Shown here piece after piece: positions 1,202-21,043 of a stretch of DNA of 22,039 bases (positions are counted from its first letter, which is position 1; every line of letters starts with the position of its first letter). Under the pieces are notes generated by a model. That model was not told the origin of the DNA and did no database searches. It saw nothing but the letters and a program-made list of their open reading frames with translations. Origin of the DNA: a virus (taxonomy: Duplodnaviria > Heunggongvirae > Uroviricota > Caudoviricetes); the IMG/VR virus record IMGVR_UViG_2609459792_000005. One strand, 5' to 3'. Made by a program: the position numbers and the translations under genes.

Positions 1202-1873
1202 TCAGCGACCAATCACCACAACCTGACCACCATCCCCTTCGTCTGCCGTGCTGATCTCCTGAGAAACCACCCGTGACCCCACGCGCATTTCACCGTACAG
1301 AACAGGCAGAACATTGCCCTGGGCAACCATGTTATCCAGTGAGGAGAAATAGGTGTTCTGCTTACCGTTATCCGTTGTCTGTGTACGGGGAGTTCTGGCT
1401 TTCGGTGCCAGCATCTGCGCCACACCACCAAGTACCATACTGGCACCGAGAGAAAACAGGATACCGGTCATACCACCGGCCCCAATGGCTGCCCCCCATG
1501 CTGCAAGGGTGGCTCCGGCAGTAAAGAATGATCCGGCAATGGCGGCAGCCCCCAGAACAATCTGGAATACGCCACCTGACTTGGCCCCGGCGACTCTGGG
1601 AACAATATGAATCACAGCGCCATCAGGCAGAGTCTCATGTAACTGCGCCGTTAACCCGGACGTGCTGACGTCCCGCCCGGCAATCCGTACCTGATACCAG
1701 CCGTCGCTCAGTTTCTGACGAAACACCGGGAGCTGTGTGGCCAGTGCGCGGATAGCTTCAGCCCCCGTTTTCACACGAAGGTCGATGCGGCGGCCAAATC
1801 GTTGCAAATCCCCGTAAAGGCAGATGCGCGCCATGCCCGGTGACGCCAGAGGGAGTGTGTGCGTCGCTGCCAT
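1202..1873 (-). CDS. I: Tail tip assembly protein I
   Basis: 223 aa ORF, same length as lambda gpI as recalled; starts MAATHTLPLASPGMARICLYGD; Gly/Ala-rich hydrophobic middle; overlaps K 3' end by 103 nt; position K-I-J. Confidence 0.85.
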   Translation of the reverse strand: MAATHTLPLASPGMARICLYGDLQRFGRRIDLRVKTGAEAIRALATQLPVFRQKLSDGWYQVRIAGRDVSTSGLTAQLHETLPDGAVIHIVPRVAGAKSGGVFQIVLGAAAIAGSFFTAGATLAAWGAAIGAGGMTGILFSLGASMVLGGVAQMLAPKARTPRTQTTDNGKQNTYFSSLDNMVAQGNVLPVLYGEMRVGSRVVSQEISTADEGDGGQVVVIGR

Positions 1874-2514
1874 TTGTCGGTATACCTCTCTCGTTTACTC
1901 AGTTGTTCAGGAATATGGTGCAGCAGCTCGCCGTCACCACAGTAAATGGCAGCATGATTCGGCACCGATGAACCAAAACAACACAGCAGCACATCGCCCG
2001 GTTGTGCTGATGACAACGGCACCTGATACAGCCCTGTGGCCTCCAGATTATCCAGATAGAGATTCTGACCGTGACGCCACCAGTCATCCTCGCGATGAAA
2101 ATCCGGCATCTCAATCCCCGCCAGATGGTAAGCATCCCGGAACAGCGTGTAACAGTCCGTCACCCCGTGCTCAAAGCGCCGCCCGGTGAGATGCGGCACA
2201 CAGCGGAACTTATGAATCGTCCCCCGGCAGACCAGCCACCACGGCAAATCACTCTGCACCTGCAGCCGCCGGTCGGCCTCACTCAGCCTGGGCAGACCAC
2301 CGGGGTGGCTGTGGACCAGCGCCACAATCTCACCCTGCATTTCTGCCTGCAGCCAGTCCTCCGGCGACATACGGAAATACGCCTCCGGCTCACCGGAGAT
2401 ATTCACGCAGGGGAAATATCTTTCCCCCTCCGGCGTGCTTACCACGAAGCCGCACGACTCCGCTGGCGCACATCGCCGGGCGTGCGCCAGAATCGCTGAT
2501 TCTGTCTGTGTCAT
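1771..2514 (-). CDS. K: Tail tip assembly protein K (JAB/MPN metalloprotease-like plus NlpC/P60-like domains); long form 247 aa, alternative internal start at 2370 gives 199 aa
   Basis: ORF starts 5 nt after the L stop; JAMM signature HSHPGGLPRLSEAD (HxH-x7-S-x2-D) with an upstream ESCGFVV motif about 49 residues before it; C-terminal Cys/His region; internal ATG at 2370 has a GGAGG RBS. Confidence 0.75.
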   Translation of the reverse strand: MTQTESAILAHARRCAPAESCGFVVSTPEGERYFPCVNISGEPEAYFRMSPEDWLQAEMQGEIVALVHSHPGGLPRLSEADRRLQVQSDLPWWLVCRGTIHKFRCVPHLTGRRFEHGVTDCYTLFRDAYHLAGIEMPDFHREDDWWRHGQNLYLDNLEATGLYQVPLSSAQPGDVLLCCFGSSVPNHAAIYCGDGELLHHIPEQLSKRERYTDKWQRRTHSLWRHRAWRASAFTGICNDLAAASTFV

Positions 2515-2519
2515 GGGAT

Positions 2520-3218
2520 TTACTGCGAAAGTTTGTTAATGGAAAGGAAGCCGCCAAAGTTGCCGACGTTATTGCGAAACTTACAGCCACTCAGGCATTT
2601 GCTGCATTTATCCTTCGTGATATCGGACGTTGTCTGGTCATATTCATCCGCGACCGCCGGACCGTGATAACCGCACTCATCGCCGCGATAGGTCCAGGTG
2701 CAGGTGTTGGCCAGCATGATACGTCCCGGAAAAACAGCGCCATCTGTTTCCGTCGGCGTGGACAGTACAAAGGAGGCACTCACCGCGCTCAGTTCGCTGC
2801 ACTGCTCGATGCGCCAGCGGCTGATCACCTCCTGCTCCGGATCGGCGTCACTGTTTCCGTTGACGAAGTTCACCGCATCCAGAAAACGGGCATAAACCTT
2901 ACGCCTGACCACCGTTCCGCCGACCAGACTCTGCAGATCTTCCGCCATCCCGGTGACCATGCCATACAGGTTAGAAACCGTCAGCGTGGGGCGCGTACTG
3001 GTGCCTTTGCCATTCAGTTCGAAACCACTCCCCTGAATGGGATACGCCTGATACTGTCGCCCCTGCCAGGTGACCGGCTCACCTTTTTCGTTCTGCTCAT
3101 TACAGAAAAAATAACGTTCTCCACCGACCTCTGTCAGGTCGATTTCCCATAGCACCACGCTGGCCGACTGCTCCGCACGGGTGCATTCATTCAGTGTTTC
3201 CTGCCGGATATCCTGCAT
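2520..3218 (-). CDS. L: Minor tail protein L
   Basis: 232 aa, same length as lambda gpL as recalled; ATG overlaps the M stop (ATGA); C-terminal cysteine cluster (CTWTYRGDECGYHG ... CSKCLSGC); position M-L-K. Confidence 0.9.
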   Translation of the reverse strand: MQDIRQETLNECTRAEQSASVVLWEIDLTEVGGERYFFCNEQNEKGEPVTWQGRQYQAYPIQGSGFELNGKGTSTRPTLTVSNLYGMVTGMAEDLQSLVGGTVVRRKVYARFLDAVNFVNGNSDADPEQEVISRWRIEQCSELSAVSASFVLSTPTETDGAVFPGRIMLANTCTWTYRGDECGYHGPAVADEYDQTTSDITKDKCSKCLSGCKFRNNVGNFGGFLSINKLSQ

Positions 3219-12244: not shown

Positions 12245-15925
<3,681 letters not shown>

Positions 15926-15951
<26 letters not shown>

Positions 15952-16471
15952 TCAGCAACCCCGGTATCAGTTCATCCAGCGCGGCTGCTTTGTTCATGGC
16001 TTTGATGATATCCCGTTTCAGGAAATCAACATGTCGGTTTTCCAGTTCCGGAAAACGCCGCTGCACCGACAGGGGGATCCCGTCGAGAATACTGGCAATT
16101 TCACCTGCGATCCGCGACAGCACGAAAGTACAGAATGCGGTTTCCACCACTTCAGCTGAGTCTCTGGCATTCTTCAGTTCCTGTGCGTCGGCCTGCGCAC
16201 GCGTAAGTCGATGGCGTTCGTACTCAATAGTCCCTGGCTGGAGATCTGCCTCGCTGGCCTGGCGCAGTTCTTCAACCTCCCGGCGCAGCTTTTCGTTCTC
16301 AATTTCAGCATCCCTTTCGGCATACCATTTTATAACGGCGGCAGAGTCATAAAGCACCTCATTACCCTTGCCACCGCCTCGCAGAACGGGCATTCCCTGT
16401 TCCTGCCAGTTCTGAATGGTACGGATACTCGCACCGAAAATGTCAGCCAGCTGCTTTTTGTTGACTTCCAT
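15926..16471 (-). CDS. Nu1: Terminase small subunit Nu1
   Basis: 181 aa as for lambda gpNu1 as recalled; starts MEVNKKQLADIFGASIRTIQNWQEQGMPV (helix-turn-helix); begins just inside cosB. Confidence 0.9.
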
Positions 16472-16489
16472 TGTTCATTCCACGGCCAA

Positions 16490-16615
16490 AAACAGAGAAA
16501 GGAAACGACAAAGGCCCAAAAGCTCGTTTTCAGCACCTGTCGTTTCCTTTCTTTTCAGGGGGTATTTTAAATAAAAACATTAAGTTACAACGAAGAAGAA
16601 CGGAAATGCCTTAAA
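16490..16615. promoter_or_regulatory. cosB: terminase small-subunit binding sites R1 (16496-16510), R2 (16538-16552, inverted), R3 (16591-16610) and AT-rich IHF-type site I1 (about 16559-16582)
   Basis: Three copies of the GTTTCC-containing motif (tgtcgtttcctttct and its inverse agaaaggaaacgaca, plus ggcatttccgttcttcttcg in reverse complement) arranged as in lambda cosB as recalled. Confidence 0.65.
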
Positions 16616-16648
16616 CCGGAAAATTTTCATAAATAGCGAAAACCCGCG

Positions 16649-16660
16649 AGGTCGCCGCCC
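16649..16660. other. cosN cohesive-end sequence, intact and joined
   Basis: Plus-strand aggtcgccgccc is the reverse complement of the lambda 12-nt cohesive end GGGCGGCGACCT; flanking bases also match the lambda ends as recalled. Confidence 0.8.
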
Positions 16661-16859
16661 CGTAACCTGTCGGATCGCCGGAAAGGACCCGCAAAATGAT
16701 AATAATTATCATCTGCATGTCACAACGTGCATCTACGCCATCAAACCACGTCAAATAATCAATTATGACGCAGGTATCATATTAATTGATCTGCATCAAC
16801 TTAACGTAAAAACAACTTCAGACAATACAAATCAGCGACACTGAATACGGGACAACCTC

Positions 16860-17093
16860 ATGTCAACGAAGAACAGAACCCGCAGAACAACAACCCGCAA
16901 CATCCGCTTTCCTAACCAAATGATTGAACAAATTAACATCGCTCTTGATCAAAAAGGGTCCGGGAATTTCTCAGCCTGGGTCATTGAAGCCTGCCGCCGG
17001 AGACTGTGCTCAGAAAAAAGAGTTTCTCCTGAAGCAAACAAAGAAAAGAGTGACATTACTGAATTGCTCAGAAAACAGATCAGACCAGATTGA
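16860..17093 (+). CDS. Small ribbon-helix-helix (Arc/Mnt/CopG-like) putative DNA-binding protein with Arg-rich N-terminus
   Basis: 77 aa ORF; segment IRFPNQMIEQINIALDQKGSGNFSAWVIEACRRRL fits the RHH pattern (beta-strand R-F-P, helix A, G-x-S/N turn, helix B), compare Arc NLRWPREVLDLVRKVAEENGRSVNSEIYQRVMESF recalled from memory; weak RBS; strand opposite to the late operon. Confidence 0.5.
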   Translation: MSTKNRTRRTTTRNIRFPNQMIEQINIALDQKGSGNFSAWVIEACRRRLCSEKRVSPEANKEKSDITELLRKQIRPD

Positions 17094-17149
17094 AGCAATT
17101 TAGATAATCGTGCAGACTACACCCCTCATATCACATGGAAGGTACTACA

Positions 17150-17560
17150 ATGGCTCAGGTTGCCATTTTTAAACAAATATTCGATAAAGTGCGAAATAAT
17201 TTAAACTATCACTGGTTTTATTCTGAACTAAAACGTCACAATGTCTCACATTACATTTACTATTTAGCCACAGAGAATATTCATCTTGTTCTTGAAAACG
17301 ATAATACGGTTTTAATAAAAGGACAGGGTAAGGTTGTAAATGTAAGATTTTCAAAAAATAAATGCCTTATAGAAGCCACCTTAAAAGGATTCAAATCAGG
17401 AGAGTTATCATTTTACGAATACAGGAAAAATCTTGCTACAGCAGGGGTTTTCAGATGGATTACAAATATCCACGAAAACAAAAGGTATTACTATACCTTT
17501 GATAATTCATTACTCTTTACTGAGAACATTCAGAACACTACACAAATATTTCCGCACTAA
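17150..17560 (+). CDS. Hypothetical protein, probably YbcV/DUF1398-family (prophage protein of unknown function)
   Basis: ORF 17135-17560 in track; second ATG at 17150 has a GGAAGG RBS 9 nt upstream and gives 136 aa starting [14 protein letters not shown]; AT-rich composition; 42-57 bp downstream of the RHH gene on the same strand; family assignment is from memory and uncertain. Confidence 0.55.
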
Positions 17561-17818
17561 ATCATAACGTCCGGTTTCTTCCGTGCCAGAACCGGCCTCG
17601 CTGGCATGATGAAATATGTGTACCCGGTAACCCCGGTGTGCATCGTTTTTGATTATTCCCACACACTCGCGCAGAAGGAGTTCCCCGTCGGGCTACGGTC
17701 TCTGTTAATACGGGAATACGGCGACGATACAGCGCATGATGTGTCAGGCTTGAATACCTTTATCCTTTAAAAGGGATATCAGTTAAGTTATCCCGTGTAG
17801 GGTATAAGCCATTATCAA

Positions 17819-17844
17819 AGCCACTCTGTAGGAAGTGGCTTTTG
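17819..17844 (+). terminator. Putative rho-independent terminator for the plus-strand RHH/DUF1398 unit
   Basis: Stem agccact / agtggct with 8-nt loop followed by TTTTG. Confidence 0.35.
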
Positions 17845-17855
17845 TAATGGCAATA

Positions 17856-17878
17856 AAAAGCCCCGCGAATGCGAGGCT
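17856..17878 (-). terminator. Putative rho-independent terminator downstream of Rz (minus strand)
   Basis: GC-rich imperfect stem (gcctcgc att cgcgggg c on minus strand) followed by TTTTTATTG. Confidence 0.3.
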
Positions 17879-18081
17879 AAATCCTGGTATTTGTAATGAC
17901 TGGCTCTTATCTCAACGCAGCCCCTTACCGCGCGCAAAATGCTCAATATCAAGCATCAGCAATGAGATGTTTAATCTGGATTCACTCCAGAAGTGAGCAC
18001 CACCCTGTCTACAGAGCCAGATGTGAAGGATGATGAGTAAAATTATCGCTATCATCGAAGGCATTGCGTCCTGATGTATTC

Positions 18082-18531
18082 CTAAAGCGTTCTCAGTGCT
18101 GTTTGGTCGCGGATAATTCCGTCCCGGATACCGAGAACGTTTCGTCCAGCAACTGGAGAGAGTTCGACGGTGGCATCATTGCCCATGCCGGAGGCGCTGG
18201 AGGTTTCGGCTGAGGATGGCACAGGGCATTTTCCTTTGACGAGCACCCGACCACCATTATCAAGCTTGCGCCGAAGAGCATCATTTTCAGCTTTCGCATC
18301 AGCTAACTCCTTCGTGTATTTATCATCGAGTGCATCAGCATCACGCTGGCGCTGCTGCATGTCAGTAATGGTGGCGTTCGCCTTCTCCAGTTCACTGGCC
18401 TTGTTATCGCGCTGTTCTTTGTAGGCGATTGCATTATCACGGTAATGATTAACAGCCCATGACAGGCAGACGATGATGCAGATAACCAGAGCGGAGATAA
18501 TCGCGGTTACCCTGCTCATTGTTGCCCCCAC
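18082..18531 (-). CDS. Rz: Inner-membrane spanin subunit Rz (i-spanin)
   Basis: 149 aa; N-terminal TM segment ([16 protein letters not shown]) then coiled-coil-like charged region; follows the endolysin with a 16-nt overlap; contains the embedded Rz1 frame. Confidence 0.85.
18093..18299 (-). CDS. Rz1: Outer-membrane lipoprotein spanin subunit Rz1 (o-spanin), embedded in the +1 frame of Rz
   Basis: 68 aa; signal peptide with lipobox VVGC; proline-rich mature region ([16 protein letters not shown]); wholly inside Rz. Confidence 0.8.
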
Positions 18532-19013
18532 AAACAGACCTCACGCTCAATCTCACGACGAGTCATCAGGCCTTTCCATTGCTTACCGCCAGCGTATGCC
18601 CAGCGACGTAGCTGGTCACATGCGCCCTTGATATCGCCCTGGTTTATTTTGCGAAGAAGAGTAGATGTTCTGAAATTGCCTGCGCCCACGTTATAGACGA
18701 ACGAGTAAAGAGCGCCGCGCGTTGTTTCCGGTATATCGACTTTGATGTACGGGTTAATTTGTCTGGCTACCGTGGCAAGGTCTTTATTCAGGAGGGCTTT
18801 GCATTCTGCTTCGGTATACGTTTTACCGAGCATGATGTCTTTTCCTGTATGCCCGTGACATACAGTCCATACACCAACAATATCTTTGTATGGTATGTAG
18901 CTGACACCTTCCAGACCATCGTTACCACTTGGGCCAGTGATTAACACTGATGCTATAGCAATTGCTCCGCCACCAATAGCAGCAGCAACGACTTTTCGTA
19001 ATGATGGAGGCAT
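18516..19013 (-). CDS. R: SAR (signal-anchor-release) endolysin, phage 21 R-type lysozyme
   Basis: 165 aa; Gly/Ala-rich weakly hydrophobic N-terminal SAR segment ([18 protein letters not shown]) followed by T4-lysozyme-like catalytic region ([20 protein letters not shown]); recognised as close to phage 21 R. Confidence 0.9.
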
Positions 19014-20513: not shown

Positions 20514-21043
20514 ACAGCGAATCAGATCAAATAAAACGCACATTTGTTAACATTTACACAAAGTCTGCGTGGGATATTCTGAAAGAATATCCATAATGTG
20601 GAGAGAATCTATTGAAGTGCATGGTGCCGGGTGCCTCCCGGTGAACAAAATGTTCGTGATACCTGTCGGCGACAGAAAAGGTTAATGGTATCACCCCACC
20701 GCACAGGGGGATTCACCATGCAGGAGTTTTCTTAGCAAACTCACTGCGCGCCCGGCAACTCCCAACCACATAAAATGCGGAGTTTGTGGTATTTATGCAT
20801 ATAACTCGCAGGAATTATCTTAAAAAACTGATGTCGATCCGGATTAAAAAGAAGCAGGTCATCATCAGATGACTGGAAAAAAGGAAAAAAAAAATACTCA
20901 TCATACAGTTTTGATTGCAGGGATGAGCCTGCTATGCACAATATGCAGAATATAAGCAAGATAAAAATATGCAGGCATATTATTTCGGATTTTGTTATTA
21001 ACACAACCTTTTTAATAATCATTTGGCATACAATAAACCAGTC

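Follow-up and report, generated by a model that had tools for sequence, protein, structure and literature searches.

The window, by which we mean the whole 22,039-nt stretch of viral DNA analysed here, carries a lambda-like late operon on its minus strand with 97–98% identity to lambda, 2H10, Turner and related phages, and all features given below lie on that strand. Genes M, L, K and I lie next to one another, which agrees with the L-K-I-J order expected around a lambda gpK orthologue. Gene L (2520..3218) ends in a TAA stop at 2520..2522, five nucleotides (ATCCC) follow, and the next ATG, at 2512..2514, opens a frame of 247 codons plus TGA (1771..2514) with a predicted product of 28.2 kDa. 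Downstream, gene I (1202..1873), which encodes a protein with a ubiquitin-like (Ubl) domain that is the reported K substrate, overlaps the 3′ end of K in a different frame. The K protein matches phrog_30 'minor tail protein' at E = 2e-163 and its exact sequence was found on 320 contigs; from sequence and gene order, we identify it as the orthologue of lambda gpK, the tail tip assembly protein K.

The same frame contains a second, internal ATG at 2368..2370 (Met49), equivalent to lambda position 14276, which is the start used in the legacy 199-aa annotation of K. The initial annotation of the window had proposed that K begins instead at the first ATG, immediately after L, and the features it drew on were all found at the locus: the listed open-reading frame runs from the ATG at 2514 past the internal ATG at 2370, the first ATG follows the L stop by 5 nt, and NC_001416 does give lambda K as 14276..14875 (199 aa), as the initial annotation stated. 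The gap of about 148 bp after L that it considered unusual is 148 nt in NC_001416, and would be 149 nt in the window if K started at Met49, in an operon where the other tail-gene junctions all overlap or nearly touch (H/M overlap by 4 nt, M/L by 1 nt). The two candidate starts differ in their upstream sequence. No Shine-Dalgarno sequence was detected before the first ATG, where the best anti-SD duplex is +0.7 kcal/mol, whilst the internal ATG is preceded at 10–11 nt by GGAGG (2382..2386, 11 nt upstream in the window) with an anti-SD duplex of −9.5 kcal/mol. At issue are the 48 N-terminal codons (2371..2514) which the 199-aa annotation lacks.

These codons complete a protease domain. The 247-aa protein matches the Pfam profile Prok-JAB (PF14464) over residues 3–104 (2203..2508) with 55.2 bits against a cut-off of 25 bits, covering profile positions 3–112 of 114; the 199-aa form matches positions 63–112 only, at 26 bits, and residues 1–48 alone match at positions 3–41. 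The JAMM motif is present in full, as E-x48-H-S-H-x7-S-x2-D, with the ESCG sequence beginning at Glu19 (codon GAG, 2458..2460) and the zinc-binding part, His68-Ser69-His70-x7-Ser78-x2-Asp81, at 2272..2313 (HSH at residues 68–70, SEAD at 78–81). Both the spacing of about 49 residues between ESCG and HSH and the loss of the glutamate from the short form, which the initial annotation had put forward, are confirmed, as Glu19 falls within residues 1–48. With this motif, the full-length profile match and a predicted MPN fold, K can be assigned on sequence and model to the JAMM/MPN+ metalloproteases. K resembles the halobacterial-type desampylases but falls outside their NCBIfam equivalog NF041370, against which it scores 31.6 bits where the cut-off is 130. 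The C-terminal domain, residues 111–224 (1843..2184), matches the NlpC/P60 profile (PF00877) over all of its positions (1–105 of 105) with 49.3 bits against a cut-off of 23 bits, and carries the Cys-His-His residues of a C40 papain-like peptidase at Cys121 (2152–2154), His187 (1954–1956) and His199 (1918–1920); its sequence places it in the NlpC/P60 (C40) family.

To assess conservation we used alignments of 14 and 55 homologues, the larger reaching down to 26% identity, together with 87 close loci comprising 80 IMG/VR contigs and phage and E. coli records. The lengths given to homologues by gene callers were excluded as evidence, as the callers are biased, and tblastn and DNA-level analyses were used in their place. 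Ten residues are invariant in all 55 homologues: E19 (also invariant in the set of 14), G22 and N38 in the disputed segment, H68, H70, S78 and D81 in the remainder of the JAMM motif, and C121, H187 and H199 in the NlpC/P60 domain; Ser occupies position 69 in 54 of them and Thr in the remaining one. Met49 is far less constrained, the position being occupied by Met in 25 homologues, Leu in 17, Ile in 11 and Pro in two. With the 247-aa protein as tblastn query, which is independent of annotation, coverage was at least 80% in 1,720 of 1,752 phage records, and alignments began at query residues 1–8 even at 27–40% identity, a group made up of T1-like, phi80, HK639, Klebsiella, Burkholderia, Ralstonia, Rhizobium, Vibrio, Moraxella and Pseudomonas phages. 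In distant representatives the alignment begins at their own residues 4–15, and in the distant phage loci we examined the K homologue is 237–260 aa long and starts 0–40 nt past the L stop.

At the DNA level, the first ATG is present in all 87 close loci, with homologue starts lying within a few residues of it, and the 247-codon frame is intact in every one of the 87; the stops in close relatives that the initial annotation had named as evidence against the long form are absent. Codons 1–48 contain 23 synonymous and nine non-synonymous segregating sites across these loci, where 24% synonymous would be expected without selection (P = 2e-8), and in this they are not different from the rest of K (90 synonymous, 62 non-synonymous). 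This pattern shows purifying selection on codons 1–48 and, with Glu19 invariant in 55 of 55 sequences, the conservation anticipated for the upstream codons was borne out.

An AlphaFold model of K built on the 55-sequence alignment (pLDDT 93.6, pTM 0.86) places residues 1–48 at pLDDT 96–97 as a helix (3–15) and two strands (21–27 and 30–36) of the JAMM fold. The top PDB match in Foldseek was 5lda_A, Pyrococcus furiosus JAMM1 bound to SAMP2, at 2.5 Å rmsd over 107 columns with a TM-score of 0.67 normalised to the target; other top matches for this domain were 5ld9 and 2kks, followed by Rpn11, CSN5 and AMSH, whilst the C-terminal domain matched MepS/Spr, LytE and Acd33800. A profile search of PDB sequences aligned the glutamate of the K family with the motif glutamate of 2kcq, 2kks and 5lda. 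In the model, residues 1–48 belong with high confidence to the JAMM core, and a K of 199 aa would start partway through this compact domain with the catalytic glutamate missing. Profile matches, conservation, selection and predicted fold all favour the 247-aa K over the 199-aa form, as first proposed for the window, and a long K that is conserved, selected and structurally complete is supported by both the alignments and the model.

The opposite reading, that the 199-aa protein is the sole real product and the upstream 48 codons are an untranslated spacer which is open by chance, agrees with the reference annotation and with the distribution of Shine-Dalgarno sequences, good at the internal ATG and missing at the first. 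A spacer, however, would not be expected to show the synonymous excess of codons 1–48 or invariant Glu19, Gly22 and Asn38 across distant phages, the full-length profile and fold matches need residues 1–48, and K in distant phages starts close behind the L stop. We find this reading scarcely credible, and in our view the conservation data already refute it.

How the long form is initiated must then be explained without a ribosome-binding site of its own. Because the first ATG has no Shine-Dalgarno sequence, we infer that translation of K most likely relies on coupling to L termination, 5 nt upstream. The strong GGAGG further downstream leaves room for a second product, and some internal initiation at Met49, giving a minor 199-aa protein, may occur. 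The stronger proposal, that both forms are made, 247 aa from the coupled start and 199 aa from GGAGG-driven initiation at Met49, and that the shorter has a role of its own, draws on the −9.5 kcal/mol duplex at 10–11 nt, and on the retention of both the internal ATG and the GGAGG, each in 86 of 87 close loci. Nested in-frame starts are also known elsewhere in lambda, in C/Nu3 and S107/S105. The retention within the lambda clade is nevertheless uninformative on internal initiation, because the GGAGG is spelled by the codons CCG-GAG-G of Pro43-Glu44-Ala45 and the Pro-Glu codons also constrain these bases; Pro43 is nearly invariant. Stx1 phage L005, at 87% identity, retains GGAGG but has ATT (Ile) at the position of the internal ATG, and such conservation of GGAGG without the ATG in relatives of about 87% identity suggests that the sequence reflects the Pro43-Glu44 codons and not an initiation signal. 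In Salmonella and Citrobacter relatives with Pro-Thr at residues 43–44, the protein sequence implies that no GGAGG can be encoded at that spot. Position 49 is merely hydrophobic across the family, and the short form would start inside a compact domain. We therefore regard production of both forms, with a distinct role for the shorter, as unlikely. Such a 199-aa protein would keep an intact NlpC/P60 domain and JAMM profile positions 63–112 only, without the elements that bear Glu19. By analogy with C/Nu3 and S107/S105, one could picture two isoforms, a 28-kDa JAMM plus NlpC/P60 protein and one of 23 kDa with NlpC/P60 alone that acts separately in tail-tip assembly, for example to regulate or cap the longer protein; this specific version appears slightly less probable again. 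The long product initiated by coupling to L is the reading we favour.

If the long frame is conserved so widely, the 199-aa annotation of lambda itself requires a cause, and we located one in the reference sequence. Extended upstream in frame, the annotated lambda K meets a stop after only six codons. Alignment of the L-K junction shows GAGCCGGAGGC-TATTTCCGTATG in the reference, against GAGCCGGAGGCGTATTTCCGTATG in the window, Lambda imm21, DE3 and phage 21; NC_001416/J02459 is without one G, at 2380 in the window, between reference positions 14266 and 14267 and 10 nt before the internal ATG. In its deposited form the reference contains a 76-aa open-reading frame from 14133, left without annotation, which corresponds to the N-terminus of K for its first 45 residues and is out of frame thereafter. 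Adding the G restores a 247-aa protein whose residues 49–247 are identical to annotated K. The upstream frame is closed in the lambda reference because this one G is missing, whereas it is open in the window and in the other lambda-like sequences examined. The 199-aa annotation thus goes back to the loss of a single nucleotide from the reference sequence, and a badly chosen start is not the whole cause; the internal ATG, preceded by a good GGAGG, would have been taken as the start once the frame above it appeared closed.

With the G in place, window K and lambda K are the same gene, lying between L and I with the same JAB plus NlpC/P60 architecture. They differ at five of 247 residues (W76R, N148H, A169S, Y237C and V241A in the window relative to lambda), none of which is in residues 1–48, at 97% DNA identity. 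The lambda entries NP_040598, AAA96551 and TIPK_LAMBD, in contrast, hold the 199-aa truncation where the window frame gives 247 aa.

We then followed the missing G through the databases with a 70-nt query spanning the site, run against phage records and E. coli genomes. The shorter, G-less version was matched at 100% in only four of 122 phage records, J02459, NC_001416, OR474059 and OR974322. The first two are one and the same sequence. OR474059, labelled 'UNVERIFIED', matches the reference at 100% for its first 24.5 kb; beyond that, its engineered insert aside, it departs from the reference only by the textbook cI857, ind1 and Sam7 markers and a further difference of 1 nt. OR974322 is presented as an isolate from a chicken swab but has the exact coordinates and annotation of the reference, and we infer that it is a reference-guided consensus. 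The G is present in KT232076, LC730321, PV340536, the imm21, imm434 and h434 hybrids, DE3, DN1 and O276, as well as in the lambda prophage of the K-12 strain J53, and in a search of 5,426 complete E. coli genomes the shorter version was found at none of 7,209 matching places (3,926 genomes). Among the 15 sites at which LC730321 departs from the reference is the additional G at 14266/14267. The breseq example output for lambda reportedly lists '14,266 +G, intergenic (+139/-10) L/K', which would fit this difference. We also considered that the G is truly missing from some lambda stocks, and rejected this since the other records with the shorter version are derived from the reference.

The site lies in a G/C-rich run (GGAGGCG), and such runs were prone to compression on the sequencing gels of the 1980s. 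Because the G-less version is absent elsewhere, we consider a 1982 sequencing error in this run the most likely origin of the missing G. If the cI857 S7 stock used for the 1982 sequence did carry a frameshift here, this would mean that tails assemble with a 199-aa K and that the JAMM domain is dispensable; the shorter version does stand in four database records, and the internal ATG with its Shine-Dalgarno sequence could rescue expression of the C-terminal part. Two of those four records are the same sequence, however, and OR474059 and OR974322 look derived from the reference, while every independently sequenced lambda derivative that we checked has the G and the run is of the kind liable to gel compression. 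A genuine frameshift therefore seems distinctly improbable to us, and a sequencing error is the source of the short annotation that we favour.

The consequences of the gap are spread unevenly across current resources. K is annotated with 247 aa by PGAP in the J53 prophage (WP_000194780.1), in the 2025 lambda record PV340536 and in phage 21 (OL657228), and with 199 aa in NC_001416, J02459 and the UniProt entry TIPK_LAMBD. DE3 and Lambda imm21, both newer submissions, have the G, yet their K is annotated with 199 aa, and KT232076 uses a third start that gives a gene of 636 nt. The exact 247-aa lambda sequence is present on at least 1,000 contigs, with names such as 'Predicted metal-dependent protease of the PAD1/JAB1 superfamily', and about 11,000 database sequences fall into 199-aa clusters. 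A 2020 structural review took gpK as '199 residues in total' and reported the C-terminal peptidase alone (PMC7291167), and our literature search turned up no erratum dealing with either the start of K or the missing base.

The long form itself is already known. Lambda K was among the JAMM proteins listed in 2003 (PMC300881), and in 2006 Iyer, Burroughs and Aravind described the JAB plus NlpC/P60 architecture of 'TAPK', linked it to the ubiquitin-like N-terminal domain of the product of the next gene, 'TAPI' (gpI), and predicted that the JAB domain frees the Ubl domain by cutting at the conserved glycine at its C-terminus (PMC1779556). Cleavage of the gpI Ubl domain by gpK was presented in a 2025 conference talk, which we cite second-hand from a meeting summary (PMC12908700). 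In lambda virions analysed by cryo-EM and mass spectrometry, gpI was found, with only residues 135–223 resolved, and gpK was absent (PMC10721106).

Taken with these reports, our results favour, with a probability of about 0.88, a K that is a 247-aa two-domain peptidase, translated from a start coupled to L, whose JAMM domain would cut gpI, the 199-aa form being an artefact of the reference. The motif, the predicted fold and the conservation in this account come from the window, the catalysis and the substrate from the literature. K(1–247) would be made by coupled translation following L. Residues 3–104 are predicted to form a complete JAMM/MPN+ zinc metalloprotease in which Glu19 acts as general base, His68, His70 and Asp81 as zinc ligands and Ser78 completes the motif, and residues 111–224 a NlpC/P60 cysteine peptidase with Cys121, His187 and His199. 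During assembly of the tail tip, the JAMM domain, acting much as a deubiquitinase, would strip the N-terminal Ubl domain from gpI. The cut would probably follow the terminal Gly-Gly of the Ubl domain and take place when gpI is already docked in the forming tip, and K would depart after cleavage.

Known enzymes offer partial parallels to both halves. P. furiosus JAMM1 (5lda), 2kcq and 2kks share the E-xn-H-S-H-x7-S-x2-D motif with K, and the predicted K model shares the fold of 5lda over ~107 residues at the rmsd given above; 5lda is bound to a ubiquitin-like protein, and the reported substrate of K, gpI, carries a Ubl domain. Sequence identity of K to these JAMM desampylases and Ubl-processing peptidases (5lda, 2kcq, 2kks) is just 22–26%, however, and unlike the prokaryotic desampylases K is fused to a NlpC/P60 domain, its reported substrate being a linear fusion of Ubl and structural domains rather than an isopeptide conjugate. 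Similarly, the C-terminal domain has its Cys-His-His residues and fold in common with E. coli MepS/Spr and B. subtilis LytE, but these are secreted cell-wall hydrolases, whereas gpK has no reported cell-wall role and is absent from virions (PMC10721106).

The result is a correction of a reference sequence and its annotation, with the cause traced to one missing base, and not new biology, as the two-domain architecture was set out in 2006 (PMC1779556) and most newer annotations use 247 aa. It matters as lambda is the reference phage, and NP_040598 and TIPK_LAMBD still show K with half of its protease domain missing. The remedy in the reference is to add a G after 14266 and to place the K start at 14133. 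Until then, a K cloned from the reference annotation would carry an inactive JAMM domain into studies of tail assembly and gpI processing.

Within the K tail-assembly protein, codon 76 (window 2287..2289, minus strand), one of the x7 positions that separate His70 from Ser78 in the JAMM motif, is TGG (Trp) in 86 of the 87 close loci, lambda included, and AGG (Arg) in the window. Across the wider family Leu, Gln, Tyr, Arg, Ile and Trp are all found here, and since the position differs so among family members, the Trp to Arg change is probably tolerated in the K of the window.

The lambda reference as deposited (NC_001416, which lacks one G between 14266 and 14267) contains an unannotated 76-aa ORF at 14133..14363, residues 1–45 of which are the true K N-terminus. 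Two PHROGs families match the same end of the protein, phrog_7305 (76 positions, unknown function) at K residues 1–75 and phrog_2635 (135 positions, 'tail protein') at residues 1–132, which suggests that the annotation of some phage genomes treats split or truncated pieces of K as genes in their own right.

Between NC_001416 and LC730321, an independently obtained lambda sequence of 48,503 bp, there are 15 differences: 12 substitutions, the additional G at 14266/14267, a 1-nt deletion at 138 and an additional C at 20833, the last of which lies near the known stf/orf-401 frameshift. Some of the other differences may be further reference errors or strain differences. Several public phage records seem to be wrongly named: MW057783 (48,361 bp), deposited as 'Campylobacter phage CJLB-4', is in essence lambda, and the K homologues of 'Campylobacter phage A113' and 'A14b' resemble those of T1-like coliphages. 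A further such record, the chicken-swab isolate OR974322 ('Escherichia phage Lambda isolate P6/2022/SA'), combines the coordinates of the reference with its unique missing G, the pattern expected if lambda control DNA had been assembled into a consensus guided by the reference.

The window opens with the start of J and continues with I, K, L, M, H, T/G, V, U, Z and the head genes as far as A and nu1 (15926..16471), as assigned from ORF sizes only. In the region ~15926..19013 nu1 is followed by ORFs that, by their position past cos, would fit lysis-region genes; from ORF sizes we infer an order as expected for a prophage or circularly permuted contig, not a virion-ended genome.

Records disagree on the start of gene I (window 1774..1873, minus strand), downstream of K. 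The lambda reference uses the ATG at 1873, giving 223 aa, whereas the PGAP annotation of the lambda lysogen J53 and the 2025 lambda record PV340536 use the GTG at 1774, which overlaps the K stop and gives 190 aa. Among 12 gpI homologues the conserved first strand of the ubiquitin-like (Ubl) domain, xIxLYGxLGxRFGR, begins 1–5 residues after the N-terminus and aligns with Met14 of the 223-aa form (ATG at 1834), residues 1–13 of which are not conserved. As this strand aligns with Met14, the 190-aa form would cut into the Ubl domain.

Near residues 90–101 (223-aa numbering), gpI homologues have in common a conserved P-x-x-x-G-x-K-x-G-G segment, IVPRVAGAKSGG in the window, directly followed by a hydrophobic Gly/Ala-rich stretch. 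In virions gpI is resolved from residue 135 onward only (PMC10721106). The segment resembles the Gly-Gly terminus of ubiquitin-type proteins and is the likely, predicted site at which the JAMM domain of K would cut gpI.
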